IMG/VR virus record: IMGVR_UViG_3300028829_004880
Location: 1-58,277 of that record
From: a virus
Taxonomy: Duplodnaviria; Caudoviricetes
DNA length: 58,277 bases
Strand: one strand, 5' to 3'
This document shows positions 16,191-57,107 of this stretch, one piece after another. The position numbers and the translations under genes were made by a program. Numbering within the stretch: the stretch's first letter is position 1; the number at the start of each line of letters is the position of its first letter. The notes beneath the pieces were generated by a model. That model was given only the letters and a program-made list of their open reading frames with translations, made no database searches and was not told where the DNA came from.

Positions 16191-17164
16191 TAATTAGAAC
16201 CAATTAAATAATCAAATTGTTCATTACTTAATAGATGTCCTCTTCCAATATAAGCCGACTTATATTCAATTGGTAATTTCATAAACCAATCTAAATCAGT
16301 ATTAAGTGTACCTAACAAGTTATCTTCCTCTTCTTCTTGTGGTGTCTTTGGATTATTAACCATTTTCTCTACTGGTACACCCTTAGACTTCAAGTACTCA
16401 ACATAACTCTGAGTGTCACCACCAAATTTAGCAATAGTTCCAGTAGTGTTATTTGCATCAGTCAATTCAATACCATGTTTAGTATTGTCAAATACAACAA
16501 TGTGTAATGGGTCATCTAAATTAGCGGAACCATCTTCATTTGTTTTAAAGTGATTTTTATCTACAATGAAATAGAATGAAGAATCCTGTGAGTCACGATA
16601 AGATTTATACATAGTATTACCTGGTTGTCCGATACAAAAACCATAACCTTGACCAGTTAATCCACCTTGTGTATATGCAATACACTTACCAACCCCATTT
16701 CCATCATAAATATCGATTCCATTACCACTCCAAAGTGTTTTTTTGTCAGAATTGAAGTCAGCATCAACACTAGACCCACCCTTAGGTTTTTCAGTATATT
16801 TATTGGTTTCACCGTGAATATATTCACCAAACGCTATAAAGCTTGCTATTGGTTTATCACCCATGGTCATACCACCCTTTCTAGAATAGTTTAGTGGTTT
16901 AACTCTTTGTTTTTTAATTAACTCTTCATACTCATTAAAAACACTACTTAAATTATTTATATTTTTTTCACCACCAACATAGAATACAGCCATAAATGGT
17001 AGATTCTTTTGGTTCTTTGAATTATCGATTGATTTTAATTGGTTGAGTACTTCTTCCTTATTATCAAGTGCTTTTAATACCCCTAAACTTTGTTGCTCAC
17101 TAGCCTTTGATTCGCTTATGCGAATAAGATTTTCTCTAAGTAATGTTCTAATGAATGATTTCAT
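16190..17164 (-). CDS. hypothetical protein with MKxFIxxLLRE leader
   Basis: ORF; upstream TATTTAT motif. Confidence 0.65.
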   Translation of the reverse strand: MKSFIRTLLRENLIRISESKASEQQSLGVLKALDNKEEVLNQLKSIDNSKNQKNLPFMAVFYVGGEKNINNLSSVFNEYEELIKKQRVKPLNYSRKGGMTMGDKPIASFIAFGEYIHGETNKYTEKPKGGSSVDADFNSDKKTLWSGNGIDIYDGNGVGKCIAYTQGGLTGQGYGFCIGQPGNTMYKSYRDSQDSSFYFIVDKNHFKTNEDGSANLDDPLHIVVFDNTKHGIELTDANNTTGTIAKFGGDTQSYVEYLKSKGVPVEKMVNNPKTPQEEEEDNLLGTLNTDLDWFMKLPIEYKSAYIGRGHLLSNEQFDYLIGSN

Positions 17165-17194
17165 ACTAATAAATACTACTTAATATGATAAAAG

Positions 17195-17281
17195 TAGGGA
17201 TAATGGGAGTCGAACCCATACGCTAATATTTCAAGCAGTAGCGTTTGAAACTACCATGTCTACCAATTCCAACATACCCCC
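17195..17281 (-). tRNA. tRNA-Leu(CAA)
   Basis: class II cloverleaf, loop TTCAAAC. Confidence 0.85.
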
Positions 17282-17287
17282 ATGTTG

Positions 17288-17371
17288 TACCTAAGGTGGG
17301 ACTCGAACCCACACGCCCTTACGGGCACCAGCTTCTTAGGCTGGCGTGTCTACCAATTCCACCACTTAGGT
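17288..17371 (-). tRNA. tRNA-Leu(AAG)
   Basis: class II cloverleaf, CCAGC-CTAAGAA-GCTGG. Confidence 0.85.
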
Positions 17372-17380
17372 ATATTGTTG

Positions 17381-17469
17381 TACGGGTGGTGGGAATCGAA
17401 CCCACAGGTGTATCTTACGTGTGCCACGGGGTCTAAGCCCGCCAGCTTTACCAATTTGCTCACACCCGC
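17381..17469 (-). tRNA. tRNA-Leu(TAG), atypical variable region
   Basis: GCGGG-CTTAGAC-CCCGT. Confidence 0.8.
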
Positions 17470-17481
17470 ATGTGTGATTTG

Positions 17482-17569
17482 TAGGGATGATGGGAATCGA
17501 ACCCATAATGTCTCTTACGTGTGCCATAGGGTTTAAGCCTACCAACTTTACCAATTTGTTCACACCCCC
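17482..17569 (-). tRNA. tRNA-Leu(TAA), atypical variable region
   Basis: GTAGG-CTTAAAC-CCTAT. Confidence 0.8.
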
Positions 17570-17676
17570 AAGTAACGGTAGCTTATACTCTCAGTACATA
17601 GTGATAGACCACTATAACGTACTTACCCTTTAAGCATGAGCCAGTCTATTCCAACACCCGTTTAGTTGGTGGCTTG

Positions 17677-17756
17677 TAGCGGACCTAGGAGTCGAACCTA
17701 GTATCTCGTGGGTTATGAGCCCAGAATGATTTATATATCCGTTTCACTCGTCCGCA
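17677..17756 (-). tRNA. tRNA-Met(CAT), initiator-like
   Basis: T1:T72 mismatch, GGG/CCC in anticodon stem, enlarged D loop. Confidence 0.75.
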
Positions 17757-17758
17757 AG

Positions 17759-17829
17759 TACCCCCACGTGGAATCGAACCACGGCTTTCTCCATGTAAAA
17801 GAGATGTTCTCCCATTAAACTATGGGGGC
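17759..17829 (-). tRNA. tRNA-Val(TAC)
   Basis: cloverleaf, loop TTTACAT. Confidence 0.85.
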
Positions 17830-17932
17830 ATAAAACAAACATAATACCTCTTCGGTCACAAGTGTCCATTGGTCCAGATTCTTACTGGTGTCCTTGAATG
17901 ATGGGATTTAAACCCAACTTACATTTGTTTAG

Positions 17933-18003
17933 TAACCCTAGACGGATTCGAACCATCGCTTCTTGCATGTAACACAAGGGTGCTCCCGTTACACCATAGG
18001 GTT
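17933..18003 (-). tRNA. tRNA-Val(TAC)
   Basis: cloverleaf, loop GTTACAT; 5' end overlaps HNH stop codon. Confidence 0.8.
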
Positions 18004-18526
18004 ATTTAGAACTTTCAATTTTTGCGTGTCTTATTCTATGACAATTAGAACACAATAACACACATTTGTCTAGTTCATCTTTTATTTTACCCCACTTCTG
18101 GTATTGTATCTTATTCCAGTTTGGGTCCTTTTCATTTGGGTCTAAGTGATGAAAATCAAATACACATTGATAGGTGTTTTCAATATTCAAATCACAATCC
18201 AAACATTGGTCTCCCTTATAATGAACCATTTTAAGTTTAACCCTTTTTATTCTTTTCCCATGATACACATTACTACAGTTTTTACAATAACCACCGTAAC
18301 TATCTCTATTAGACCTTTTATAGAATTCATCTATTGGTTTAATAGTTTCACATCTAGGGCAGAACTTGTCATCACCATACTGTTTATTATGTTGGTTGTG
18401 CTTGGTTTTTAAACCAAACTTCTTTAACCAATACTTTATACTAGTCTGAGAACAATCAAGTTCTTCTGCAATCTGTCTTTGAGACATTCCTGTCTCAATT
18501 AGTGGTTCTAATATTTCTCTTTCCAT
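18002..18526 (-). CDS. HTH + zinc-finger HNH endonuclease
   Basis: N-terminal HTH, CxxC pairs, DFHHLDP...CVLLCSNCHRIRH. Confidence 0.85.
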   Translation of the reverse strand: MEREILEPLIETGMSQRQIAEELDCSQTSIKYWLKKFGLKTKHNQHNKQYGDDKFCPRCETIKPIDEFYKRSNRDSYGGYCKNCSNVYHGKRIKRVKLKMVHYKGDQCLDCDLNIENTYQCVFDFHHLDPNEKDPNWNKIQYQKWGKIKDELDKCVLLCSNCHRIRHAKIESSK

Positions 18527-18555
18527 AACAGTGTTTTATAATAAATATAACTCAC

Positions 18556-18594
18556 TTTCGAAAAAGACACTCTGAACCACTGAGTTACAGATGC
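18556..18594 (-). pseudogene. orphan tRNA 5' half
   Basis: GCATCTG-TA-ACTC-AGTGGTTCA-GAGT with no T arm or 3' acceptor strand; HNH gene follows. Confidence 0.6.
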
Positions 18595-18599
18595 ATTTG

Positions 18600-18687
18600 T
18601 TGCAGTAGTAGGATTCGAACCTACAGTGAGGTTTCAAACCTCGTCCCCCTCCACGGGGGATGTGTATGCCAATTCCACCATACTGCT
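18600..18687 (-). tRNA. Leu-type body with TGG at anticodon position (undetermined)
   Basis: Leu-like D arm, long variable arm, A73; loop CGTGGAG; A1:A72 mismatch. Confidence 0.55.
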
Positions 18688-18716
18688 AAGGTTCTTTGCG
18701 CTTTAGAACCCCTTTG

Positions 18717-18802
18717 TAGCCGAGGTGGGATTCGAACCCACACGGGCATTACTGCCCACTGGATTTTAAGTCCAGCGTGTCTACCAATTCCACCACTCAG
18801 CC
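18717..18802 (-). tRNA. tRNA-Leu(TAA)
   Basis: canonical class II cloverleaf. Confidence 0.92.
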
Positions 18803-18997
18803 ATTTAGGGTGTTTCAACCCTAAAACTTGGTAATTAATTTGTGTGGTGTTTTAACCACTTTTTCAAATTTTTAACTCTTCTTATTTTCTTTATACGAAA
18901 GGCTCTATTAACCTTTTCATGTATGTGTTCTATTTCCTTTTTGGTTAATAAATCACTTTCTTTAGTATCCATTTTCATTTTTAACTCTTATTAGTTG

Positions 18998-19072
18998 AGT
19001 CGGGAGAGGGAATCGAACCCCCATCTATCTGATTTTGCAGACCAGTGCCTAAAGCCATTCGACCATCCCGAC
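18998..19072 (-). tRNA. tRNA-Cys(GCA)
   Basis: loop CTGCAAA, U73. Confidence 0.9.
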
Positions 19073-19229
19073 ATATTTTAATGTTTCACTTCTATTCTCT
19101 TTCCACACTTGACACATTTCTTAATCTCTATATTCTTGGTCCAGAAAAAAACTGTTCTCTCGAATTTATGACTACAAATTGTCGTTCTTATTTTATCTTT
19201 TATTATTTTCATTTCTAATTATTGTGCAT

Positions 19230-19261
19230 AAAAAAATCCGATACTGAATTTCAATATCGGA
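19230..19261 (-). terminator. attenuator terminator of tRNA array 2
   Basis: TCCGATATTGA-AAT-TCAGTATCGGA + T7. Confidence 0.85.
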
Positions 19262-19288
19262 CCTTAACTTGTTGTTATATCTTCAAAT

Positions 19289-19366
19289 TTAACAACACAG
19301 TCCGACACTTACTACTAATAAGACTAGTAGTGAAGAAAGACATAATATGTTGTTAACTGTTTGCAC
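19289..19366 (-). CDS. leader peptide MQTVNNILCLSSLLVLLVVSVGLCC (GTG start)
   Basis: hand-translated 25-aa ORF between promoter (19419-19426) and terminator; L/V/C rich. Confidence 0.75.
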   Translation of the reverse strand: MQTVNNILCLSSLLVLLVVSVGLCC

Positions 19367-19472
19367 TTTTTAAGTTTTTAAGTCGGCACACGAGGCACCT
19401 TGTTTATTAAATACATTGCAAATATACGAAAAACTTTTTAATAAGCAAGTATTTTTTAAATTTATTTTTAAA

Positions 19473-19844
19473 TTATTTTATAATATCCCTAATTTGAAGA
19501 ACAGCTAGATACGCTTCATCCCTTTGTTTATAAAGCTTTATGAGATATTTATCAAACATTAATTTATCTTCAAAAACTTCATCAAATTTAGGTCTTAATT
19601 TCCTTAATTCTTCTGTTGAGTTGACAAGAATCTCTAAATGTTGCAATACCTTCTCAGTATTATACACCTTGTTATAGAAATCTACAACACCACTAACTTC
19701 ATCTAATTCATTTAATAGTTTTTTCTCTTCATCTCTCAACGCAGCAGCCTTTTCGTACTGTTGGTCCATGATGGTTTTGTTCTTTCTTTCTGGCATATCA
19801 TTGAGCTTGTCAATAAGTACCATAATCTCATTTTTTTTCTCCAT
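19473..19844 (-). CDS. UVR (UvrB/C) coiled-coil motif protein
   Basis: QQYEKAAALRDEEK, like the ClpC/McsA UVR motif. Confidence 0.65.
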   Translation of the reverse strand: MEKKNEIMVLIDKLNDMPERKNKTIMDQQYEKAAALRDEEKKLLNELDEVSGVVDFYNKVYNTEKVLQHLEILVNSTEELRKLRPKFDEVFEDKLMFDKYLIKLYKQRDEAYLAVLQIRDIIK

Positions 19845-19908
19845 TTCCTTATTTTTCTTATTTTTCTTAAGTATAACGATTTTAAGATATTAGTAAATAT
19901 TTATAGGT

Positions 19909-20691
19909 ATGAAGTTATTACGATTATATGAAAACATCATAAGGGAAGGTCAAGCTAAGAGTTGTGTTGCTAAATTCGGGGTAGAATTATTTGGTGACCA
20001 ATTAAATGGTAAAGAGGCTAACACTAGTACAGAAGAATTATACTTAAAGTATATTGAAAGATTCACTGAGGATAACTTCGGTGTTGGGCTTACTGCGAAT
20101 TTCGCTAAGTCAATTCAACACCTTAAATCTTGTATGTCATCATACCCAGAAGTATTAGTTCCTTCTAACACAACTGTTTACAGAGGTGAGGTAATACCTG
20201 TTTCGTGGTTTCTAAAGAATAAGGTTCAGTTCTCTAATACACCAGTTGGTTTTACATATGAAACACCAGCACCTATACAAAGTTGGACTGAGGACCGAAA
20301 AACAGCAGCTGGCTTTACCTTTGAAGCAACTGGTGATGGTTATTGGGAAGAAATGGGTAATGAATTTTTAGAATACATGGGTAGAGGTACTGATGGTGAG
20401 GATAAGTTTTTCACTGAGGTATTCTTAAAGAAATATTCAAATCTTAAGGTTCCAATTGTATTAGAACATTATGCAGATGAAAGTGAGTTTATATTCAAGG
20501 CTAAATACTTCGATGCATTGAGTAGCAACCCTGGTGAAATGGAGGTACTTAGATTAGGGAACGAACCATTATCCACAGACTTAACCGTATCATTTGATTC
20601 ATTGCCAAGATACGCTGGAAAAGCATTATTAATGATTAACCAAATAATTGAATTTGGTTTAGAAAGTGGAGAAGATTATGAGATTAGATAA
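19909..20691 (+). CDS. putative mono-ADP-ribosyltransferase (R-S-E type)
   Basis: VYRG, QSWT and EMEVL motifs in the expected order. Confidence 0.6.
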   Translation: MKLLRLYENIIREGQAKSCVAKFGVELFGDQLNGKEANTSTEELYLKYIERFTEDNFGVGLTANFAKSIQHLKSCMSSYPEVLVPSNTTVYRGEVIPVSWFLKNKVQFSNTPVGFTYETPAPIQSWTEDRKTAAGFTFEATGDGYWEEMGNEFLEYMGRGTDGEDKFFTEVFLKKYSNLKVPIVLEHYADESEFIFKAKYFDALSSNPGEMEVLRLGNEPLSTDLTVSFDSLPRYAGKALLMINQIIEFGLESGEDYEIR

Positions 20692-21322
20692 ATTATATGA
20701 AGGTGTTTTAAGTGAACAAGGTGCTGAGGCTTGCATAGCTAGATTTAGTGACCAATTACCAGATGATGCTAGTGGTGTCATTAGACCACAATTTATCAAG
20801 ATAATCAAGTCATTTAAGTCATGTATAGCTAACTATAGTGAGGTAATATATCCAGAAGCTAAAGCATATAGACCGCATCAAATGACGATGCAAGAATTGC
20901 TTAATCAATATGAAGATATTTCTGATGACCTTAAGGATGGTGGAGAATTTGACTTTACATTCAGAGTTTCATTTAAAATTCAAGGATGGTTTGCTGATAA
21001 GGGTACTGCTGAACACTTGGGAACAACATCACCATTTCTTATTTCAATAATCAACCAATATAATAATCTTAAAGAAGACCCTAGGGCACTTAGCTCTTTC
21101 ATACTTGATATTAGCTCACAATTAGGTGATGTTACAGTTCCAGTAACTGTCGAGTTGTTGACTAGTTCTGATGACTTCTTATTGAAGGGTGATATGCTCC
21201 CTAATCTAAAGCATAATGACCTTGTTAGAGTCAACAATCAACCAACTAGAGTAAAGGGATATATACTAGGGGATATATTTGAAGATATTTACGATATTCT
21301 AAGAGAACTTAAGAAAATATAG
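20678..21322 (+). CDS. degenerate paralog of upstream ART-like protein
   Basis: colinear similarity (A..C.A.F, KSC...Y.EV, YR, W, F..K) without the ExE motif; start moved to ATG 20678. Confidence 0.5.
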   Translation: MRLDKLYEGVLSEQGAEACIARFSDQLPDDASGVIRPQFIKIIKSFKSCIANYSEVIYPEAKAYRPHQMTMQELLNQYEDISDDLKDGGEFDFTFRVSFKIQGWFADKGTAEHLGTTSPFLISIINQYNNLKEDPRALSSFILDISSQLGDVTVPVTVELLTSSDDFLLKGDMLPNLKHNDLVRVNNQPTRVKGYILGDIFEDIYDILRELKKI

Positions 21323-21418: not shown

Positions 21419-21991
21419 ATGATTATATATAAAACAACAAATTTAATTAATAATAAATTTTATATCGGAAAAGATGCTAGAGATAATTCAAACTACTATG
21501 GTTCTGGTTTATTATTAAAAAGGTCCATTAAAAAGTATGGTAAGGAAAATTTCATAAAGGAAACACTTGAAGTTTGTTCAACCTATGATGAAATGGCTGA
21601 ACGTGAAATATATTGGATAAGAAAATTAGATGCAAGAAATCTAGATATTGGTTATAACTTAGCCGAGGGTGGTAAAGGTGGTTGTCTTGGTTGTAAATTT
21701 TCTGATGAACATAAAAGGAAAATAGGTGAGGCACTTAAAGGACATGTGGGGTCTAACCCTAGTCCAGAAGCTAGAAAAAAGATTAGTGAAGGTAATAAAG
21801 GTAAAATTGTTACTGAGGAACATAGAGATAAACTAAGAATCCCAATCAAACAATTAACCAAAGAAGGTGAATTGATAAAGATTTGGGGGAGTACAACAGA
21901 AATTTGGGAAGTTTACCCACATTGTAAAGTTTCTGAATGTGCAAGAGGAACTAGAAAAACCTCACATGGTTTTAAATGGGAATATGAATAA
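21419..21991 (+). CDS. GIY-YIG homing endonuclease with NUMOD3/NUMOD1 repeats
   Basis: IIYKTTNLINNKFYIGK, GYNL, KRKIGE..KG, GFKWEY. Confidence 0.88.
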   Translation: MIIYKTTNLINNKFYIGKDARDNSNYYGSGLLLKRSIKKYGKENFIKETLEVCSTYDEMAEREIYWIRKLDARNLDIGYNLAEGGKGGCLGCKFSDEHKRKIGEALKGHVGSNPSPEARKKISEGNKGKIVTEEHRDKLRIPIKQLTKEGELIKIWGSTTEIWEVYPHCKVSECARGTRKTSHGFKWEYE

Positions 21992-22301
21992 CGGTAAGGT
22001 ATATCTTGTAGGAAACTTGGATGAAAATCTATATAAGATTGGTTGGACTAGAGGCGACATTAATAATCGTGTCCTTCAACTCCAAACAGGAAATCCTAAG
22101 AAAATTGAAGCTGTTAATGAATTTGAATCCAAGCATTATGTTAAACTTGAAACATACATGCATAATAGACATGGTAGTAAAAGACAAGAAGGTGAATGGT
22201 TTGAATTAACACAAGAAGATGTCATGAACTTTACCAACGATTGTCAGAGAGGTCATGACACCATTCAAATGCTTGTAGAATCTGGAAATCCATTTATTTA
22301 G
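21984..22301 (+). CDS. GIY-YIG family protein (T5orf172/MUG113-like)
   Basis: VYLV..YKIGWT..R..LQTGNP..E..MH..GEWF. Confidence 0.8.
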   Translation: MNNGKVYLVGNLDENLYKIGWTRGDINNRVLQLQTGNPKKIEAVNEFESKHYVKLETYMHNRHGSKRQEGEWFELTQEDVMNFTNDCQRGHDTIQMLVESGNPFI

Positions 22302-23520
22302 AACCTTCCAACCAATCCAAAAATTTTGTCGCATAAAATCCTTTACGAATCTTAACCAATAACTCATTAACCAATTCTAGGTCAACCTTGTCTGGAAGAC
22401 TTGACTCATCAAAGATGGTATCCATCTTCTCAATTGACTCATCAGCCATTGTGATAAGTTGTTCTAGGTCAACTTCACCACGTCTAATCCCTAATAACTC
22501 CTTAGCATCTGGTCTACGTACAATAATACCCTTTCCAGACCCAATTTCTTGAGCCATTCTGATTAGCCTCATGCAGTGCATCATATTCTTACCATCAATT
22601 TGTTGACCATGAGTCTTCGTATCTACATACCTTTGAGTGTTTCGATTTTCTAACCACTCTTGGTATTCTTTATAGTCCTTACAATGTCTAGTATAACCAT
22701 CCTTATTGTAAGTGAAGATAGCAATTGGATTTAATGGATGACCTAATTGAGTTGTCTTAGGAACCGAAGAAAGTCTAAGTTGGTTTGATTCACCAGCATT
22801 ACTAGAACCACCAACCTTTGTAATACCCTTAAATCCGAATCCGAATGACCTACCCTTTTCTTTTAGATAAGCTTTTCTTTCATCCTTAGATTCTTTTGAT
22901 AGTTGAGGGTGGAAACATCTAGATGCTTCATCATCATAATACAGTGCATACATATCTCTAGCGTTAGGGATATTTACAACACCACAAAACTTTTGTCCAC
23001 GGTAGTCTAAAAATTCCTTCATAGGGATAGTCTTATGACCCTTGATAATATAACAGAAGTCAAGGATTTCTTTACGAGTAACCTTGTCCTTATCATTCTC
23101 CCAATTTTGTTTCTTATTAAGACCCTTCGCTTTCTTGATTTGCTGTCTAGCATATCCACCGAATGAGTTCTTACAACCCTTGGTGATAAATTCAGCCTTG
23201 TGTTCAAGGATGATATCAAATAATGGGTGCTTAGAGATAATACAGTCCTCTGGTGAGTTAAGTAACTCAAGAACCGTTGGATTGTCTGTTCCAAGTAGTT
23301 CAAGGAAACGTCTTATTTCCCATCCCGTATAATCAGCGTTCACATTAAGTTGTTCAATATAACCCGTACCAAGAATGTGTTCTTGTGGTAGGATAAATAC
23401 GAACTTCTTATCAATGTCTGACGTAGGTGTTTGCGTTCCATAGGCTTGTGAACCCACAACTGTTTCAAAGAGAATAAGTCCATTCTCCTTAAGATATTCA
23501 TATGTAATTCCTTTGTTCAT
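22294..23520 (-). CDS. RlaP/NrdC.11-like nucleotidyltransferase (Pol-beta superfamily)
   Basis: VGSQAYGTQTPTSDID, NPTVLELL, KNMMHCMRL motifs. Confidence 0.8.
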   Translation of the reverse strand: MNKGITYEYLKENGLILFETVVGSQAYGTQTPTSDIDKKFVFILPQEHILGTGYIEQLNVNADYTGWEIRRFLELLGTDNPTVLELLNSPEDCIISKHPLFDIILEHKAEFITKGCKNSFGGYARQQIKKAKGLNKKQNWENDKDKVTRKEILDFCYIIKGHKTIPMKEFLDYRGQKFCGVVNIPNARDMYALYYDDEASRCFHPQLSKESKDERKAYLKEKGRSFGFGFKGITKVGGSSNAGESNQLRLSSVPKTTQLGHPLNPIAIFTYNKDGYTRHCKDYKEYQEWLENRNTQRYVDTKTHGQQIDGKNMMHCMRLIRMAQEIGSGKGIIVRRPDAKELLGIRRGEVDLEQLITMADESIEKMDTIFDESSLPDKVDLELVNELLVKIRKGFYATKFLDWLEGSK

Positions 23521-25425: not shown

Positions 25426-26742
25426 TTATCCCATTTCTATCATGTAAGCAATCGTACATTGATTTCCATCATATACAATGAACTCATTGTTTCTAAGGTC
25501 AGCACCACCTTGTGCGAATACTGAATCATAACCCTCTTTGTTCATAACAGACTTTGAAAGACTATAACATGAAGAGTTATGGTGAAGGATTTCCTTCTGC
25601 TTTCCTAAGTGTACATCAAACAACGCTAAATACCCCTTATTAGACCCACCATTGGTCCAATGCGAACCTCTTAACGAAGAATACCCTAAAGACTTTTGAG
25701 CCTTGTCAGCGAAGTATATACCATCACCGAACATTGAACCAGTATGTATAGCACCAGAAGGTCTAATCATAAGACCAGTTTGGATAATATTAAACCAATT
25801 CTCATTACGACTACCATGCCAGTAAAGTCTTCGTTTCTTAACCTTAGCTTTCTTAAGGTTTTTATCGAAGGCTACTTGAGTCTTGTTATTCTTAACCTTG
25901 ATAATCTTCTTAGCTTGGTGAGCATTCTTACCTAACAACTTCTTAACAAGTGCAATGGCATCTGCATCAGTTTCTTCCTCAGCACTAAGACCCATTTGTT
26001 CAAGGATTGTAATATCATCAGTATCGATTGCATCATCAGCATCTGTTGTTGCTGTTGTATCCTTTTGTTGTTTAAGTAATTTTACTTGACCAGCCATCGT
26101 ATCAAGAGTATCTTGTTCACCAATTAACAATTCTTTGGCAATATCCAAATCACTCTTAGTTGCAGTTGCTGTAATAAGGTAATCACGAACATCCTTCATA
26201 TTTCTAGGGATGATTGTATATAACTCAATAAGTAAATTATTCACTAATTTGATATCAACACCCTTCTTAAGAACACCTAAAGCATTCGTAATAACTTCTT
26301 GGGCAGCATCAATTTGTGCCTCAGTTACAGCATCTTGACTTACCTTATAGTTTTTCTGAATCGACTTATTGGCGAATGCCATAAGGTCATCAAATAAATT
26401 TCTTGTTTTAGTACACTTGATGTCAGAAACCTTTGATGTACTAGTAGTCTTACTTGTACCATCAGAAGTAGTTTCGGTAATCATCTTAGTTACATCCTTA
26501 TATCCCTTTCTAGGGTTGGTCTTGCTATCATGAACCTTATCCCATTCGTGTGACTCTTTATATGCTGTCTTAAGTTCGTCAAGTTCCTTACCAACTCTAC
26601 CGTATAAGCATTTGATTCTACCATCACTTTGCTCATCCATATAATAAACCTTATTACTGTTACCAGTCTTACCGTTATCCACTGAAACGTGGATTAACTT
26701 TGCATACTTTAATCCGTTCTCTCTAATAATACCTCTTTCCAT
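25426..26742 (-). CDS. PARP-like ADP-ribosyltransferase (WGR + regulatory helical + catalytic)
   Basis: YGRVG, LYTIIP, WHGS, GSMFGDGIYFA, NNEFIVY (H-Y-E triad). Confidence 0.88.
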   Translation of the reverse strand: MERGIIRENGLKYAKLIHVSVDNGKTGNSNKVYYMDEQSDGRIKCLYGRVGKELDELKTAYKESHEWDKVHDSKTNPRKGYKDVTKMITETTSDGTSKTTSTSKVSDIKCTKTRNLFDDLMAFANKSIQKNYKVSQDAVTEAQIDAAQEVITNALGVLKKGVDIKLVNNLLIELYTIIPRNMKDVRDYLITATATKSDLDIAKELLIGEQDTLDTMAGQVKLLKQQKDTTATTDADDAIDTDDITILEQMGLSAEEETDADAIALVKKLLGKNAHQAKKIIKVKNNKTQVAFDKNLKKAKVKKRRLYWHGSRNENWFNIIQTGLMIRPSGAIHTGSMFGDGIYFADKAQKSLGYSSLRGSHWTNGGSNKGYLALFDVHLGKQKEILHHNSSCYSLSKSVMNKEGYDSVFAQGGADLRNNEFIVYDGNQCTIAYMIEMG

Positions 26743-27393: not shown

Positions 27394-28455
27394 TTATAGT
27401 CCTACGTCTTTCATTTCCATCTCAAAGAACCACGTTCTAGCGACCTTTGAAATCTCTCCTTGAATTTCCTTAGGTTCGAATCCGTTACCCATAATGGTAT
27501 CCAATTCTTCCTTTACGATATCACCGACAATCCACTTAAGGAATGGTCCAAGGTTCTTTCTAGTCAAGTCAAGATTCTCCATTCTAAGTTGCTCAAGACC
27601 TTGCTCAAGTCTACCCTCAGTTACAAGGTTAGAAACCAACTCTTTCATGTTGTTGACTCTTTCGATATCAACTGGTGCAAGAGTCTTAGTTTTAGATGAC
27701 TGATGTTTCTCACCCTTCACCTTAAACCAATATCTAGATTTGTTCCACCCTTCGGTGATACATCTCCATACAATACCTTCCCCAACCCCAGAGTTACCAA
27801 ATGATTTACCAACTGGACATTCAGCTTCAATTACATTGGTTAATTCAACCAATTCATTTTGTGATTGTTCTGGATTGTTAAAGTCAATCTTAATCGTATG
27901 TGTTGGGTAATCTAAGATGTTGTAGATTTTATCCTCTGGAAGTTTGATTCTAGATAACTTATCATCATCCAACCATAGGTTATCAATCTTTATTGCAAAG
28001 ATAACAAACATCTTGTCAAGACCATTGAGTGCAACACCCTTTTGGATGTTACCACCACACCATTCACCATAAACTCTGATAACCTCTGGTGTATATCCCA
28101 TATCGTTACCCATTTCCTTTTCAATCTTATTAAGGATTGCTTCGGTGTTGCTAGTATGTGCAAATGCGGCAAATCCAGCATTATCCTTTGTTGGAGTGAT
28201 AATGTTCTTTCTAGATTGTGCATGCATATTATAATCATGCTTAAGCATATCCCATGTATATACAATAGCCGCATTGGTCCCATGTAACTTAACTGTACCC
28301 CTAAACTCAAGTGTTGGAACCTTCTTCGTTAAATCAAATGTTGGTTCACCATTTTCATCTTCACCAGTATAAGTGGCACGATGCTTTACTTGATGAATTA
28401 CCGTTCTAAATTGTTCAATACTAGGAAATTTGTACATTGTTTGTTCCATAATCAA
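27394..28455 (-). CDS. RNA ligase, Rnl2-like
   Basis: KLHGTN motif I, YGEWCG, GEGIVW, FKVKGEKH. Confidence 0.8.
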   Translation of the reverse strand: MIMEQTMYKFPSIEQFRTVIHQVKHRATYTGEDENGEPTFDLTKKVPTLEFRGTVKLHGTNAAIVYTWDMLKHDYNMHAQSRKNIITPTKDNAGFAAFAHTSNTEAILNKIEKEMGNDMGYTPEVIRVYGEWCGGNIQKGVALNGLDKMFVIFAIKIDNLWLDDDKLSRIKLPEDKIYNILDYPTHTIKIDFNNPEQSQNELVELTNVIEAECPVGKSFGNSGVGEGIVWRCITEGWNKSRYWFKVKGEKHQSSKTKTLAPVDIERVNNMKELVSNLVTEGRLEQGLEQLRMENLDLTRKNLGPFLKWIVGDIVKEELDTIMGNGFEPKEIQGEISKVARTWFFEMEMKDVGL

Positions 28456-34618: not shown

Positions 34619-35737
34619 TTATAATACTTTATATAACTTTTTGTTATCGTACTTTCTAAGGTACTCCTTTACTGACTCTACCTTACCATCTTTCATTCCG
34701 AAGAATAATCCACTGTAAGCCTTAAGGTCATCCTTGCCAATCAATTCAAATACCGCCATGGCGAATTTCTTTTGTTCTTTTGGTGTGATGTTCTTTGGTT
34801 TCTTGTCTTGCAACTTATCCCAAGCATCCTCAAGTGTATCAATTAATTTATTGTAACCTTCATAAAGCTTGAATATCTCTTCCTTTCTTTCTGGGAAAGT
34901 AGCGGAGAATTCCTCAATTTCATTAGATTTAACAACGTCCATTATAGCATGTTCTGATGTCTTAGACTTCAAGTGGTGAACCGCAACATATGCTGGGTTC
35001 TTTATCTTCACTCTATTGAAGTCACCATCAACAACAACGTAACCTTCTTCATGAAATGGCATTCCGTCGAAAGTCTTTTCAATATGACCTACGTTGGTTG
35101 CGTTAAGGTCAAATGACTTAACAAGTGGAATTCCAATTGACTCAGAAACCATCTTCATATCCTCGTAAGTTACCTCTTTAAGTGTCTTTCTATTTCTCAT
35201 TGCTAAGAACGTAGCAGAAGACTCCCCATGTGGCTTCACAACGATATTGTATGGAGTAGTTAACTCGAATACGTAAATGTGGTCCTTATCTAATAAACAG
35301 TCATTGAATCCGTACTTTTCAGCAACAGTATTCCAAAACAAATCATTAAATGTTGTACCATACTTGTTATTCACTTCCCCTTCACCTTCGGCTGTACCAG
35401 TAGTAGCAGCGAACCACTTCTCCTTGTTCCAATCGAAATATACTTGTATCATTGTACCATCACACTTTTCAAGTATACGTGCTGTGTTCCAATCTATCTT
35501 TGCAGCATGACCCTCAGCTGAGTTGAAGAACTTTCTAAATGAAAGACATAATATATTCCATGTATCCTTTTCAAGTATAAGTCCTCTACAATCTTGTACC
35601 TCAGAAAACCCCATAGACGATGCTATTTGGTCATACTTGATAAGAACCTTCTTATCGTAGTCCCTAGTCTTCAACTTAAACTCAGCTACTGCCTTATCAA
35701 GTCCATTTTCTTTTATGTATTTGATTATACTTAACAT
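34619..35737 (-). CDS. RNA ligase, T4 Rnl1-like
   Basis: CRGLIL, KFFN, EKCDGT, FELT, EGYVV, RVKIK. Confidence 0.85.
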   Translation of the reverse strand: MLSIIKYIKENGLDKAVAEFKLKTRDYDKKVLIKYDQIASSMGFSEVQDCRGLILEKDTWNILCLSFRKFFNSAEGHAAKIDWNTARILEKCDGTMIQVYFDWNKEKWFAATTGTAEGEGEVNNKYGTTFNDLFWNTVAEKYGFNDCLLDKDHIYVFELTTPYNIVVKPHGESSATFLAMRNRKTLKEVTYEDMKMVSESIGIPLVKSFDLNATNVGHIEKTFDGMPFHEEGYVVVDGDFNRVKIKNPAYVAVHHLKSKTSEHAIMDVVKSNEIEEFSATFPERKEEIFKLYEGYNKLIDTLEDAWDKLQDKKPKNITPKEQKKFAMAVFELIGKDDLKAYSGLFFGMKDGKVESVKEYLRKYDNKKLYKVL

Positions 35738-37040: not shown

Positions 37041-37865
37041 TTATACTATTACTTTAGATTCAACCCATTGGGTTAATGATTTAACATACTTCTCAATATC
37101 TGCATGATAGAAACCAACAGAGTTCATACACCCACACTCAATGATATAGTATCTCATATCACCATCGTCGTGTCTTGTTTCCGCTATATCCATAGCAAAT
37201 ACCTCATGTGGTTGGTATTCCTTGCATCTGTCCTCTACGAACTTAATCATATCTTCTGGGATATCATCACCAGACTTAGAAAGTCTAAAATTATTTCTAT
37301 ATCTTGAAGATGTGATAACCTTCCCATCCACAACATAGTTTCTCCACTCACGTTGTAGGTTATAGGCTGGTCCTAAGACTAATTTAGATTCCATGGTCAT
37401 TGGTGACTCATAATCCATCATTCTCTTAACCATGGACTTTAATTCCTCAACCTCACCAACTTGACCATCGAATTCTTTACCATCACCATCTGGGCGAAGG
37501 AACATATTCAATTGATGACCAAAATCCTCCAACTCAATGAAGTCTTTAACTGTTATAATCTCAGCATCAGAACTCAACATATGTTCACCCCACTTTTCGA
37601 AGTAATTCTCCATTGAAAATGTTTCATGATTATAGAATAACCCAATTGGTTTTAACTTATTATAAAGATTATTCATGAATGTAGTGGAACCGTAATATAT
37701 GTTCTCATACTCATCATCTAATGGGAAATCTGGTAACTCATCTGAAAATGGTACCACAATCACCTCATGATGTGCAATATTAAGTTTATCACAAGCCTCT
37801 TGAAATTGATTTCTATCATTTTCCGCTATTAGATTATTTTGAATAATCCATCGTACTTTCTTCAT
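37041..37865 (-). CDS. ATP-grasp protein (R2K/DUF4343-like)
   Basis: FLRP..DGKEFDG, EWRNYVVDG, MDIA, IIECGCMNSVGFY. Confidence 0.75.
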   Translation of the reverse strand: MKKVRWIIQNNLIAENDRNQFQEACDKLNIAHHEVIVVPFSDELPDFPLDDEYENIYYGSTTFMNNLYNKLKPIGLFYNHETFSMENYFEKWGEHMLSSDAEIITVKDFIELEDFGHQLNMFLRPDGDGKEFDGQVGEVEELKSMVKRMMDYESPMTMESKLVLGPAYNLQREWRNYVVDGKVITSSRYRNNFRLSKSGDDIPEDMIKFVEDRCKEYQPHEVFAMDIAETRHDDGDMRYYIIECGCMNSVGFYHADIEKYVKSLTQWVESKVIV

Positions 37866-38812
37866 TATAATTTGTTTTCAGTAACAACCCCACTAAGGTT
37901 AATATATGAATCCAATTTTTCCCAATTAGTGATTTGGTTAGACATAACTGGCTTCCCACCAGCGTTGACGTTTACCGCTACTGTTACGTGTGGTAAATCG
38001 TTATCTGAATGATATCCTTCTACCTTTACAGCAATAGCCATATCAGATATACCTATCTCAGTAGCTCTAATAGAAACACTATTACCTAAATCACCCTTCA
38101 AATTCTCTGGTAATCCCTTACCATAATTAACTGTCATGTGATGTGCGTAAATCTTCCACCCTTCTGGAATTTGATGTCCTATAGCAGTAAGTAGTTTCTT
38201 CTTAGACGCATCATCTAATACTACCATAGCAATCTTACGTTGCTTATTCTTATACATTGGCTTCGCACCTACAACCTTTTCAACTGTAAGTGGACCTACA
38301 CTCTTATAAGACTGAATCATAGCCTCAATCTTATCCAATGGTACACCATGAGTATTTCTCTCAGCCAATTCCTCAGCTGACACACCACCAGTACCAACTT
38401 CAACGAATTTAATATTCTCGTTAGTATAACCTAATCTTAATGCCGCTTCAACATAATTTTTTGGTTCGTTAGCTTTGATATTGGTATTATCTATAATAAC
38501 TGGTGAGATACCCATAGACATAGACTTCTTAGCCCTATTAAAATTCTCAGAATGTACTTGGGATAATGGTGAGAAATCTTTATTCTCTATCATATCACTA
38601 AAAAACTGACGATAATCAAATTTAGATTCAATAATATCATCTGTTGAATGAATTACTCCAGAACCAACTAATTGTTTGGCTTTGGTAGATTTACCAGAAC
38701 CAGGAATTCCACGCATAATAATCAATACTTGATTTGGTCTCGTCATTGCGAAACCCATTGCATTTACTTCTTTACCTTCTCTAAGGATTTTCTTTATAGA
38801 CTCTTTACTCAT
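37865..38812 (-). CDS. polynucleotide kinase (AAA_33) fused to 2H cyclic phosphodiesterase
   Basis: MRGIPGSGKST, IIDNTN, RNTHGVP; HHMT and PHVT motifs. Confidence 0.8.
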   Translation of the reverse strand: MSKESIKKILREGKEVNAMGFAMTRPNQVLIIMRGIPGSGKSTKAKQLVGSGVIHSTDDIIESKFDYRQFFSDMIENKDFSPLSQVHSENFNRAKKSMSMGISPVIIDNTNIKANEPKNYVEAALRLGYTNENIKFVEVGTGGVSAEELAERNTHGVPLDKIEAMIQSYKSVGPLTVEKVVGAKPMYKNKQRKIAMVVLDDASKKKLLTAIGHQIPEGWKIYAHHMTVNYGKGLPENLKGDLGNSVSIRATEIGISDMAIAVKVEGYHSDNDLPHVTVAVNVNAGGKPVMSNQITNWEKLDSYINLSGVVTENKL

Positions 38813-47447: not shown

Positions 47448-48608
47448 CTATAACATTACCTTAAACTTCTCCGTTTCAAGTTGTTTTATTGCTTTACCCA
47501 TTTCTGGTCCAGCTTCCACACCTAACTCTTTTTGAGCATCAGCACCAGTTACACTCAATCTAAAGTCTATAAATGCGTCAAGCATCTTAGAATCTAAGTT
47601 GATAAATCTACCGAACTTTCTTATTTGTTCATCTGATAACCCAGCGTTAACTTGTTGCTTCTTGAATACAAATACATCCTCTGGGTTATTGAATTGTTGT
47701 AATGCAACCAAGAATGTGATAGCCTTAACCTCAGTACTTGAGTAAGTCAACTTATTAAGTACCTTACCTAACTTATGTGGGTCGTTATCCTTAAGTAACC
47801 AAGCAAGTAGCACAATTGGGTCTCTTTCTTCTAAGAAGTTCTTAGATACACTTAATCCCTTGAATACATCATTGAATAAGTTGTACTTATCTAATAACCC
47901 TAAGAATTGGTTGATTGTCTTTGTTGTCTTAACACCCTTTAAGAATTCATCTCTGATTCTCTCTGGACTAATACCATCAAGACTAGCATCCTTCTTAAGT
48001 GCCGCATCAACGTTTGGTTCCAATTCACTACCAAATCTACCAGCAAATCTAATTGCTCTAAGGATTCTAAGTCTATCTTCTTCAAATCTTTCCTCTGGTG
48101 CGCCAACAGTTCTCACAATACCTTTCTTAAGGTCTGAGATACCACCTACAAGGTCAACTATCTCATTTGTATTTATATCAAAGAAAAGTGCATTGATTGT
48201 AAGGTCACGTCTCTTAACATCTTGGTCAATAGTCGTAAACTCAACTGCATCTGGTCTTCTACCAGAACCTATATCTTTTCTGAATGTTGCGATTTCATAT
48301 TCATCAGTATCACTGAATACATTGATTACTCCGAATGCCTTACCAGTTGGGATAGTCTTGAAACCACCCTTCGCCATTATAGCTTCCACTTGGTCTGGGT
48401 TAGCATCAGTTGCGAGGTCCCAATCCTTAGGTGTTTTACCTAAAAGGGCATCTCTTACAGCACCACCAACAACATACAATTTAAAACCGTTTTTAACAAA
48501 CACGTCTTTAATCTCAAGTATATCACTTGGTATTGTAAGGTTAAACTTAACTCGGTTCTCCGTGATAAGTCCTTCTCTAATTCTATTTCTAATAAATTCT
48601 TTCATCAT
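47448..48608 (-). CDS. cca: CCA-adding enzyme (class II tRNA nucleotidyltransferase)
   Basis: VGGAVRD..G..PKDWD, EIATFR, RRDLTINA, EDRLRILRAIRF, ERIRDE. Confidence 0.9.
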   Translation of the reverse strand: MMKEFIRNRIREGLITENRVKFNLTIPSDILEIKDVFVKNGFKLYVVGGAVRDALLGKTPKDWDLATDANPDQVEAIMAKGGFKTIPTGKAFGVINVFSDTDEYEIATFRKDIGSGRRPDAVEFTTIDQDVKRRDLTINALFFDINTNEIVDLVGGISDLKKGIVRTVGAPEERFEEDRLRILRAIRFAGRFGSELEPNVDAALKKDASLDGISPERIRDEFLKGVKTTKTINQFLGLLDKYNLFNDVFKGLSVSKNFLEERDPIVLLAWLLKDNDPHKLGKVLNKLTYSSTEVKAITFLVALQQFNNPEDVFVFKKQQVNAGLSDEQIRKFGRFINLDSKMLDAFIDFRLSVTGADAQKELGVEAGPEMGKAIKQLETEKFKVML

Positions 48609-48642
48609 AACAAATATAGTCATTTAAATCTTAGTATCCAAA

Positions 48643-51744: not shown

Positions 51745-51817
51745 TAGCGGGAGCCCGACTCGAACGGACGACCTCAAGGTTATGAGCCTTGCGAGCTACC
51801 AACTGCTCCACCCCGCA
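51745..51817 (-). tRNA. tRNA-fMet(CAT)
   Basis: T1:T72 mismatch, GAGC/GCTC D stem, loop CTCATAA. Confidence 0.85.
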
Positions 51818-53248: not shown

Positions 53249-53370
53249 AACGTTGTTTTTATGATAAATACCTTCGTAAACGTAAAAGTATAAAAACAAC
53301 GAAGCCCCGCATTCTTGTCAATACGAGGCTTAATATTTCACTCCCAACTTGTGGGTGTGGAGCGTTAGCG

Positions 53371-53739
53371 TGGAGTTGGAGAGATTCGAACTCTCGTCTT
53401 GCTTACACATAAAGTGTTTTCTACATGCTTATCTAGTTTCTAATTCTAGCAAAGTTTACTAGTTCCCGATTTTACAAGTCGGTGTTTCTAATAAAAGTTA
53501 TCTTGGATATATGTTTACTTCGTTTATCATTGAAGTTCGGTACGATACCAGTACCATGTGCTGTTTTAGGCTACAGCCATCTCTCCGTCAAGCACACCTA
53601 TCGATGCGTTGTCAAGGAAATTTTCGGATACAGTTAAGTTTCCAGTTAAATTTGTGTCTCAGTTTTAACAGCTTGTCCACTTCGCTGTGCATGCTTACAA
53701 ATCATGTTTTAATAAACAATCAAATGCCAGTCAACCCCA
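53371..53739 (-). ncRNA. ssrA: tmRNA; tag (A)GNLTVSENFLDNASIGVLDGEMAVA at 53566-53643
   Basis: GGGGTTG/CAACTCC-A with G3:U70, 5' GGCATTTGA, T arm GAGAG-TTCGAAT-CTCTC, resume context TTAACT-GGA. Confidence 0.9.
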
Positions 53740-56078: not shown

Positions 56079-57107
56079 TTACTGTGCAACCTTATTTTGG
56101 ATATCCTGTAATTTTTCTAGCAATTCTTTTTCCTCATCACTCACTTCTGTTGGTACTGAGACACTTAGAATTATTATCATATCACCTCGCTGTCCATTTG
56201 AATGTAAAATATTCATTCCCTTGTTAGGAATTCTAAGATTATCATCAACATTGCTATATGGTGGAATAGTTGCTCGTATCTTACCACCCTCTATGGTTTC
56301 AATCTCAATCTTATCACCTAATACTAATTGTGTATAACTTAATTTTAAATTAACCTTCAAGTCATTACCACTTCTAATAAATGTGTTGTGAGATAATTGT
56401 GTTAATACAACCATTACATCACCATTGTGACCATTAGGTGTTTCATGACCACCACCTTCGGATATTATTTGCATTCCATCCATAACTCCAGATGGTATGT
56501 CAACTTCAAGTGTGTTTGTTTTACTAATCGTTTTAGCACCCTTACAGTTCTTACATATATCTGATATCATCTCACCAGTACCTCTACAGCTTTGACATGT
56601 ACTTTGTTCTTGAAACATTTGGTTACCCATCCTTATGTTTCTAAACATCATTCCAGAACCCTTGCAGACACCACAACCTTTTACGTTATGACCACCCTTA
56701 CCATTACAAGGTTTACAAACAACTTGTTTAGCATACTTTAATGTTTTTTTAGCACCACTAAACATTTCTTCAAGTGACATCTTAAGATTCAATCTAAGAC
56801 TTTCACCCTTCCTAACTTGTTGTCGTTGGTTGCCGAACATCTCACGCATCATATCTTCCATGTCTTGCCTACCCTTAACTCTCTGAGCACCTTGGTGACC
56901 GAATCTATCATAGTTATTCTTCTTATCCTTATCACTTAAGGTTTCGTAGGCTTCTGCGGCTTCTCTGAATACTTCCTCAGCTGCTTTGTCGTCTGGTTTA
57001 ACGTCTGGATGATTCTCCTTAGCTATTGTTCTATAAGCTTTTTTAATTTCCTTTTCTGATGCAGTTTTACTTACACCTAATACTTCATAATAATCTCTTT
57101 TCGCCAT
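56079..57107 (-). CDS. dnaJ: chaperone DnaJ
   Basis: J domain HPD, four CxxCxGxG-type repeats, C-terminal domains. Confidence 0.92.
   Translation of the reverse strand: MAKRDYYEVLGVSKTASEKEIKKAYRTIAKENHPDVKPDDKAAEEVFREAAEAYETLSDKDKKNNYDRFGHQGAQRVKGRQDMEDMMREMFGNQRQQVRKGESLRLNLKMSLEEMFSGAKKTLKYAKQVVCKPCNGKGGHNVKGCGVCKGSGMMFRNIRMGNQMFQEQSTCQSCRGTGEMISDICKNCKGAKTISKTNTLEVDIPSGVMDGMQIISEGGGHETPNGHNGDVMVVLTQLSHNTFIRSGNDLKVNLKLSYTQLVLGDKIEIETIEGGKIRATIPPYSNVDDNLRIPNKGMNILHSNGQRGDMIIILSVSVPTEVSDEEKELLEKLQDIQNKVAQ

Follow-up and report, generated by a model that had tools for sequence, protein, structure and literature searches.

Why and when phages use tRNA genes of their own is an old question, and the locus described here raises it in a specific form: what controls transcription of a phage tRNA array that stands behind a promoter, a short open reading frame (ORF) and a terminator? 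The locus belongs to an uncultured giant phage, virus record IMGVR_UViG_3300028829_004880 (Duplodnaviria; Caudoviricetes), the whole of which (58,277 bases, G+C content ~34%) was analysed and is referred to as the window. The minus strand carries nearly all ORFs of the window, 33 calls of tRNA or transfer-messenger RNA (tmRNA) and every feature discussed, plus-strand positions being marked as such where they occur. The element in question occupies positions 19448-19230 of the minus strand, just upstream of a Cys/Leu/Val tRNA array. Judged from its sequence and the sequences of its relatives, the element is probably (at about 0.8) a ribosome-mediated, or leader-peptide, transcription attenuator in the style of trp and ilv that gates the phage tRNA array by decoding speed.

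Architecture of the element

The 260-nt gap behind the ORF at 19844-19473 is occupied by a promoter, a 5-bp hairpin, an A-rich stretch, a leader ORF and a hairpin followed by seven T. The promoter (19448-19419) is of the Bacteroidota type, with TTG at 19448-19446, a 19-nt spacer and a TAnnTTTG-type box at 19426-19419, and transcription is predicted to start a few bases past this box. Folding revealed a small 5' hairpin of 5 bp with a 5-nt loop (19399-19385) between the promoter and the leader ORF. The leader ORF (19366-19289), taken from the ORF list and characterized by codon counts, comprises 25 codons beginning with GTG 53 nt past the promoter box and ends with a TAA stop codon at 19291-19289. 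The ORF contains a total of seven Leu, five Val and three Cys codons, and past the six N-terminal codons 14 of the 18 remaining codons specify Leu (7), Val (4) or Cys (3), the other four being three Ser and one Gly. The initial annotation of this DNA had proposed a GTG-start leader that uses TTA, CTT, CTA, CTG, GTC, GTA and TGT; the ORF exists as described and all of these codons are present. The intrinsic terminator (19265-19230) was identified by folding as a stem of 19265-19251 with 19247-19233 and seven T at 19236-19230, the T-run lying 52 nt past the leader stop codon.

Three regions of the transcript can form alternative helices. Region 1 (19356-19346), the 5' strand of the 1:2 helix, covers leader codons 4-7. 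Region 2 (19309-19289), delimited by the folds and by alignment with orthologs, holds the stop codon and pairs with either region 1 or region 3. Region 3 (19277-19253) is the 3' strand of the antiterminator and consists of 19277-19270 and 19263-19253, the second part being the terminator 5' arm. With the parts folded separately, helix 1:2 (19356-19346 with 19303-19289) has a free energy of -22.4 kcal/mol, helix 2:3 or antiterminator (19309-19290 with 19277-19253) of -20.1 kcal/mol and helix 3:4 or terminator (19265-19233) of -16.9 kcal/mol. The three helices are mutually exclusive, with the stop codon inside region 2. The antiterminator is formed by two stems, 19309-19299 with 19263-19253 and 19297-19290 with 19277-19270, which are the two pairings named in the initial annotation, one with the terminator 5' arm and one overlapping the stop codon. 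Since helix 2:3 is stronger than helix 3:4 alone, and helices 1:2 plus 3:4 together are stronger than helix 2:3, the folding energies fit an attenuation mechanism. A 201-nt stretch was more stable than 200 of 200 shuffled sequences (z = -3.34).

The element lies outside the leader families of Rfam. Over the whole window no family other than tRNAs and tmRNA was detected at the gathering score, and a search of 19000-19600 at E values up to 10 returned only sub-threshold, chance-level matches and no leader family. The best match at the element was the trpB motif with 26 bits versus a threshold of 59, carried by the terminator. The model for T-box leaders (Rfam RF00230) was matched neither in the window at the gathering score nor in 19000-19600 at E values up to 10. 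A generic scan for sigma-70 promoters and terminators also passed over the element, whose terminator falls outside the loop and stem sizes allowed in the scan and whose promoter is not of the sigma-70 type.

Between the terminator and the gene for tRNA-Cys, the ORF list contains a 44-codon ORF (19212-19078) encoding two Cys-x-x-Cys pairs. It has a YhfH-like match in Pfam below the cut-off (21.1 bits versus 27) and a match to phrog_4188 with E = 7.5e-5. This ORF would be co-transcribed on read-through and hence co-regulated with the array. The start of a comparable short ORF is visible by eye in three of four orthologous loci (L037, L039 and L083).

The tRNA array behind the terminator

ARAGORN and Rfam place tRNA array 2 at 19072-17194, in the order Cys(gca), Leu(taa), an odd class-II tRNA, an HNH endonuclease ORF, Val(tac) twice, a tRNA-like Met(cat), Leu(taa), Leu(tag), Leu(aag) and Leu(caa). 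The Cys gene, the four Leu anticodons and the two Val genes listed in the initial annotation were recovered by both programs; the initiator-like Met of the same list was obtained only as a tRNA-like unit at the relaxed ARAGORN threshold. This unit (17755-17678) combines a CAU anticodon loop and an anticodon stem containing three G:C pairs with a poor D arm, and received no Rfam call. Neither ARAGORN nor Rfam called a Ser tRNA in the array at 19072-17194, in agreement with the earlier remark that the three Ser codons of the leader are not matched by the array.

The odd class-II tRNA (18687-18599) was called Pro(tgg) by ARAGORN with a score of 36.5 bits. The tRNA is aberrant: position 33 is a G in the ARAGORN reading, the anticodon stem consists of five G:C pairs, the variable arm is long, the D-arm region is similar to that of the neighbouring Leu(taa) tRNA, and the body looks Leu-like. 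Since the leader contains no Pro codon, it is suspected not to be a Pro acceptor, and its identity is doubtful. The ORF inside the array (18526-18002) encodes an HNH homing endonuclease. A second homing endonuclease, of the GIY-YIG/NUMOD3 type, is encoded near array 2 at 21419-21991 of the plus strand.

Leader codons and array content in the window

The match between leader and array was quantified as the fraction of leader codons specifying an amino acid of the array, the match set for this element being Cys/Leu/Pro/Val. The leader reached a fraction of 0.62 compared with a background mean of 0.18, and none of 2274 equal-length segments of the long ORFs of the contig reached 0.62. The longest run of array codons was seven in the leader versus a maximum of five in the background, again exceeding all 2274 segments. 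Under strict wobble rules, the anticodons of the array read 12 of 24 leader codons (7/7 Leu, 3/3 Cys and 2/5 Val); leaders of the family for the most part use codons that are readable in this way, with 32 of 38 as the highest figure in another element.

The window contains two further units of the same kind. Three copies of a 29-nt stretch that spans the promoter box and the start of the transcribed sequence are present, versus none expected, and each copy heads a tRNA-array unit. Paralogous attenuator 1 (12472-12247, with a leader ORF at 12391-12302) has 11 consecutive Phe/Asp/Ala/Glu codons in its leader and an array of Phe, Glu, Phe, Glu, Asp, Ala and Ala. Paralogous attenuator 3 (45671-45439, with a leader ORF at 45591-45493) has a 20-codon run drawn from the set of its own array, which consists of Trp, Trp, Ser, His, Asn, Ile, Thr, Met, Asn, three Arg and Ser. 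The three units agree in their promoter, in where the start codon lies and in their six or seven initial codons, and a 5-bp 5' hairpin stands at the same place in all three with stems of different sequence. The regulatory codons and all helix sequences differ among the units; a 1:2 helix and a terminator are nevertheless present in each, and in each a segment close to the end of the ORF is complementary to the 5' arm of the unit's own terminator. Both paralogs have ATG at the position aligned with the GTG of this leader.

Relatives in other phages and metagenomes

The same architecture was found in four other phage records (designated G001, G002 and G004, and GenBank LR756500.1) and at 17 metagenome loci. 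An exact scan of the viral_contigs collection with the promoter-plus-start motif returned nine loci. At three of them, in records G001 (with its near-copy G003) and G002 of 326 and 328 kb, the unit stands before tRNAs; at the other six (L001, L003 and L005-L008) the motif precedes apparently ordinary coding regions, tRNA scans covering L001 and L003. Of nine array starts inspected in G001 and G002, eight are equipped with a promoter, short ORF and terminator, and every leader mirrors its array; the ninth start lies inside an array headed by one of the other eight. In both records, for example, a Pro/Gln/His leader precedes Pro, Pro, His and Gln (and His), and a Tyr/Lys leader precedes Tyr, Lys, Lys and Lys.

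Record G004 was reached by way of a protein. A blastn search with 17000-21000 against the phage collection matched tRNA genes only, and the upstream 123-residue protein had no relative in viral_contigs. Relatives of the downstream 324-residue protein (L018 and L019) had no tRNAs nearby; L019 led to G004, which contains four units and groups its tRNAs otherwise, as Arg/Leu/Gln, Lys/Ile/Val, Tyr/Pro/Ser/Trp/Glu and Phe/Asn/Asp/Arg/Met/Thr/Gly. A blind scan, which required a strong hairpin with a T-run and an ORF ending 35-70 nt before it, identified four leaders in G004 that track these groupings. When the blind scan was applied to the window and to the tRNA-rich parts of G001, G002 and G004, the flagged strong terminators located within 600 nt upstream of a tRNA carried a leader ORF, yielding 14 elements, and a fifteenth element, one of the four of G004, is 1.5 kb away on the upstream side of its array; a few weaker flagged T-runs (~-8 kcal/mol) were without a leader ORF.

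The nearest record in the phage collection is that of the uncultured 462-kb phage LR756500.1, with 61.6% protein identity over one gene. In its segment 60001-121000 (L119/L120), one clear leader and terminator unit, which precedes His, Glu, Val, Trp and Leu tRNAs, ends near 118,853, and a second, weaker candidate lies near 94,987. The scan of metagenomes returned 96 loci. On the downstream side of the motif, a tRNA was present within 1.5 kb at 17 of them and absent at the other 79. The 17 contained 19 motif matches with such a tRNA, and all 19 were followed by a short ATG ORF starting 47-77 nt past the motif. Orthologs of all three window units were present among the metagenome loci.

ARAGORN also called 'Pyl' tRNAs with the anticodon CUA within or near the arrays of G001, G002 and G004 (L015, L016 and L020/L021) and of LR756500.1. 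These tRNAs of related giant phages are possible amber suppressors.

Specificity of the match across elements

The pairing of leaders with arrays was evaluated for the 15 elements with complete arrays from four records (the window, G001, G002 and G004). Among 82,944 within-genome permutations, the true pairing alone reached the observed summed match fraction, and it alone reached the observed summed longest run. The leader's own array gave the longest run for 14 of the 15 leaders, the exception being a Tyr/Lys leader with a run of five versus six. Of 75 array isotypes, 74 are represented by a codon in their own leader. The leaders in this set sample up to eight amino acids, and leader composition shifts wherever the tRNA grouping shifts.

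The match is specific to the reading frame. For 31 distinct leaders the mean match was 0.44 in frame versus 0.17 and 0.18 in the other two frames, these values being lowered by some metagenome arrays that end at contig ends. The mean longest run was 7.4 in frame versus 1.6 and 1.8 out of frame, and the in-frame run exceeded those of both other frames in 28 of the 31 leaders. The distance from the stop codon to the T-run was 42-64 nt in all 31. A duplex of at least -10 kcal/mol between the terminator 5' arm and the upstream 95 nt was found for 27 of the 31 leaders compared with 9 of 49 other strong terminators in the same records, with medians for the best duplex of -13.8 and -7.1 kcal/mol respectively (Mann-Whitney p = 8e-11).

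An ATG ORF at 19343-19275 was considered as the leader and rejected. Its stop codon is 38 nt from the T-run, outside the family range of 42-64 nt, it is without the shared N-terminal codons, and the ortholog L085 has no ORF of 15-60 codons from that start.

Orthologs of the element and covariation

Four metagenome orthologs (L037, L039, L083 and L085) align with the element at a mean column identity of 82%. All four have ATG where the leader in the window has GTG, which supports the GTG start, and the first ten codons are identical in nucleotides. A 1-nt insertion or deletion shifts the frame of the last leader codons in the orthologs, and the stop codon is still 49-53 nt before the T-run; conservation of the stop despite the frameshift fits selection on stop position and not on peptide sequence. 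Two of the orthologous arrays contain a Met tRNA, and their leaders have internal Met codons.

Across the five sequences, the helix cells were paired at 90.1% for helix 1:2, 86.4% for helix 2:3 and 84.0% for helix 3:4, compared with 26-70% for slid partners (26-63% for 1:2 and 35-47% for 2:3). Compensatory changes in homologs, which the initial annotation had put forward as a check, were found at one column of the terminator 5' arm. The window has U in this column and all four orthologs have C; its antiterminator partner and its terminator partner each change from A in the window to G in the orthologs, so that the column covaries with both. The shuffle controls were not significant, with 51, 72 and 154 of 500 shuffles of the five close sequences reaching the observed covariation score. 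The covariation is consistent with the alternative helices and is not proof of them; since it is not significant in so few sequences, the structural support rests mostly on recurrence of the helices across elements that cannot be aligned.

Proposed mechanism

The attenuator proposed in the initial annotation is supported, in that all of its features recognizable at the level of sequence are present and leader codons track the array in this element, in its two paralogs and in 12 further elements. Given the observed anatomy, its recurrence and the match between leader and array, translation of the leader, coupling of transcription to translation and a response of the element to tRNA supply within a feedback loop are predicted.

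Transcription would begin at the promoter at 19448-19419, and a ribosome would start on the 25-codon leader. If Leu, Val and Cys codons are decoded fast, the ribosome at the stop codon would cover region 2, the terminator at 19265-19230 would form and RNA polymerase would stop before the tRNA genes. If charged cognate tRNA is scarce and decoding slow, the ribosome would stall over or just behind region 1 and leave region 2 free to pair with region 3, which includes the terminator 5' arm; the terminator would then not form, and transcription would proceed into the small ORF and the Cys/Leu/Val array. With no translation, helices 1:2 and 3:4 would both form and transcription would terminate. Since the test codons are decoded by the very tRNAs that the array encodes, the circuit would constitute negative feedback holding decoding capacity at a set point, and each of the three arrays in the window would be under its own sensor. 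The signal would be better worded as decoding capacity, that is charged cognate tRNA, than as amino-acid limitation alone. A low amount of tRNA, tRNA damage and poor charging are indistinguishable from sequence as the natural trigger; in view of the tRNA-maintenance genes nearby, loss of tRNA is a reasonable guess.

A broader scheme, put forward tentatively and rather open to doubt, is that the units together form a multi-channel sensor of decoding capacity. The tRNAs would be sorted into arrays, each polled by its own any-of-N leader that samples every isotype and often each isoacceptor codon, with direct negative feedback on the tRNA genes; together with the tRNA-repair genes, the system might refill those classes depleted by tRNA-cutting defences of the host or by shut-off.

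Evidence against the proposed attenuator and alternative explanations

Several observations weigh against a tRNA-gating attenuator. The three Ser codons and one Gly codon among the regulatory codons have no matching tRNA in the array, and GTC (twice) and GTT are unread by the anticodon UAC under strict wobble and need extended wobble. The tRNA called Pro(tgg) is the sole isotype of the 75 without a codon in its own leader. Taken alone, the leader is hydrophobic and could pass as a membrane peptide. The covariation in the orthologs falls short of significance, as given above. LR756500.1 has at most two candidate leaders for 26 dispersed tRNAs, most of which are without a unit by the scan rule, and one Cys tRNA of G004 sits behind an ordinary ORF with no leader unit; the leader check covered the window apart from the Met tRNA at 51817 and the tRNAs at 9146-8783. 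Finally, since no further promoter of the TTG-N18-21-TAnnTTTG motif occurs between 19448 and 12472, read-through from the element might also feed the protein genes at 17164-12546.

The hydrophobic leader raises the possibility that the ORF encodes a small membrane or secreted peptide, with Leu, Val and Cys forming a transmembrane segment and the hairpin serving merely as its terminator. The 14 Leu, Val or Cys residues among the last 18 and the presence of a unit with its own promoter and terminator would suit such a peptide. The two paralogs and 28 other leaders, however, have the same architecture with acidic, polar or basic residues, each matching its own array; the C-terminal residues are frameshifted in the orthologs with the stop position kept, and the antiterminator pairs with the terminator arm far more strongly than is found at other terminators. 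On the evidence of the leader family this explanation was rejected, and it is the least credible of those considered. Hardly more credible is that the ORF is incidental and the RNA a small RNA or a protein-independent switch, resembling a riboswitch or a T-box, that responds directly to a ligand or to uncharged tRNA. Sensing of tRNA is known from T-box leaders, and the strong structure (z = -3.34) and alternative helices of the RNA are what such a switch would have; yet no Rfam family was found at threshold, the match to the array is specific to the frame, the start codon and the distance from stop codon to terminator are conserved, and the leaders that cannot be aligned share no conserved aptamer-like core. 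The terminator by itself is well formed, and a response to any signal is here a prediction only, both as expected of a constitutively leaky terminator that sets a low, fixed level of the array and leaves the leader ORF and its composition without a regulatory role. That explanation is nevertheless very improbable, as it accounts neither for leader composition following array content in 15 of 15 elements despite their differing groupings nor for the specific complementarity of the antiterminator.

The alternative that comes closest to the mechanism proposed above is a true attenuator that reads amino-acid starvation of the host through tRNA charging, as in the ilv and leu operons, with neither sensing of tRNA amount nor feedback. 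Attenuation of the trp, his and ilv type cannot separate low tRNA from uncharged tRNA, and Leu/Val leaders are classic for branched-chain operons. Extra tRNA, however, does not relieve amino-acid starvation, so that the output would misfit the signal; moreover, the leaders sample particular isoacceptor codons of the array anticodons, and the arrays lie among tRNA-maintenance genes, namely those for a CCA-adding-type enzyme, two RNA ligases, a kinase-like protein and tmRNA. A pure starvation sensor is thus unlikely, and an attenuator responding to decoding capacity is preferred.

Genome context and significance

The tRNA-maintenance gene set is interleaved with the arrays on the minus strand (22294-23520, 27394-28455, 34619-35737, 37865-38812, 47448-48623 and 53368-53738) and comprises an RlaP-type nucleotidyltransferase, two RNA ligases, a P-loop kinase-like protein, the CCA-adding-type enzyme and tmRNA. 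The window also encodes a protein with a PARP-like domain (25426-26742) and DnaJ (56079-57107), and the genes around the element are of phage character. The sequence TTG-N18-21-TAnnTTTG, the consensus of the Bacteroides/Flavobacterium promoter motif, occurs 25 times on the minus strand and twice on the plus strand, compared with a simulated mean of 3.1. This excess on the minus strand makes a Bacteroidota host likely for the phage. Small shares of the region (0.18 and 0.10) are listed for two metatranscriptome runs. The stretch 52480-51820 (minus strand), which precedes a tRNA-Met (51817-51744), contains a promoter of the same type and, behind it, several hundred bases of structured RNA that is poor in ORFs and includes tRNA-like pieces; this RNA matched no Rfam family at the gathering score.

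If the proposed attenuation is correct, at least one clade of giant phages meters its tRNA production by the speed of ribosomes on matching codons. Textbook attenuation would then cover a new class of target, the decoders themselves, and would be extended to phages, to hosts whose promoters are of the Bacteroidota type and to leaders integrating as many as eight amino acids. Should the more tentative multi-channel scheme also be true, it would be the first direct negative feedback from their own decoding activity described for tRNA genes. A practical rule is that the leader predicts the content of the array and can flag tRNAs that are mis-called, for example the Pro(tgg) at 18687-18599. The units are also natural and compact candidates for codon-specific sensors.

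Comparison with known systems

The multivalent attenuators of enterobacteria are those of ilvGMEDA, ilvBN, leu and thr, and attenuators of the same group precede trp, his and pheA. The phage element resembles these amino-acid attenuators in having a short leader rich in regulatory codons, helices 1:2, 2:3 and 3:4, a stop codon placed so that a ribosome finishing the leader would block the antiterminator, and a terminator before the regulated genes. It differs from the attenuators of amino-acid operons (trpL, hisL, leuL, ilvL, thrL and pheL) in that a 44-codon ORF and tRNA genes lie downstream instead of biosynthetic genes. Unlike the enterobacterial attenuators, it is a phage element with Bacteroidota-type promoters in its family, the codon set is defined by the tRNAs behind the leader and extends to as many as eight amino acids, and several parallel units occur per genome, one for each main array found. 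In comparisons made through Rfam, it has no similarity to any leader family. The pheST attenuator of E. coli is a case of leader-peptide attenuation of phenylalanyl-tRNA synthetase, and the phage element is similar in placing attenuation on a gene of the translation apparatus instead of biosynthesis. The pheST system, however, concerns a synthetase, a single amino acid and a cellular gene, whereas the phage element would control tRNA genes whose products read the test codons. As in T-box leaders, the state of specific tRNAs would switch between terminator and antiterminator; in contrast to a T-box, which binds uncharged tRNA directly and requires no ORF, the signal in the phage element is specific to the reading frame and no T-box match is present.

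A full-text search of the literature, with subscription papers outside it, returned no account of leader-peptide attenuation of tRNA genes in phages or cells. The nearest published case found is the trn operon of Anabaena sp. PCC 7120, a long and cryptic tRNA array that is induced by translational stress and repressed by TrcR (PMC8421152, PMC10272220). The text of PMC8421152 has no words for attenuation, leader or terminator, and that of PMC10272220 does not contain 'attenuat', 'leader peptide', 'small ORF' or 'ribosome stalling'. The trn operon is reported to be, like the phage units, an accessory tRNA array expressed only when translation is impaired, the response of the phage being a predicted one, and unlike them it is controlled by a protein repressor, TrcR (PMC8421152, PMC10272220). 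The proposed mechanism, leader-peptide attenuation, is a known one, the element stands outside the described leader families, and the target, a set of tRNA genes, would be new.

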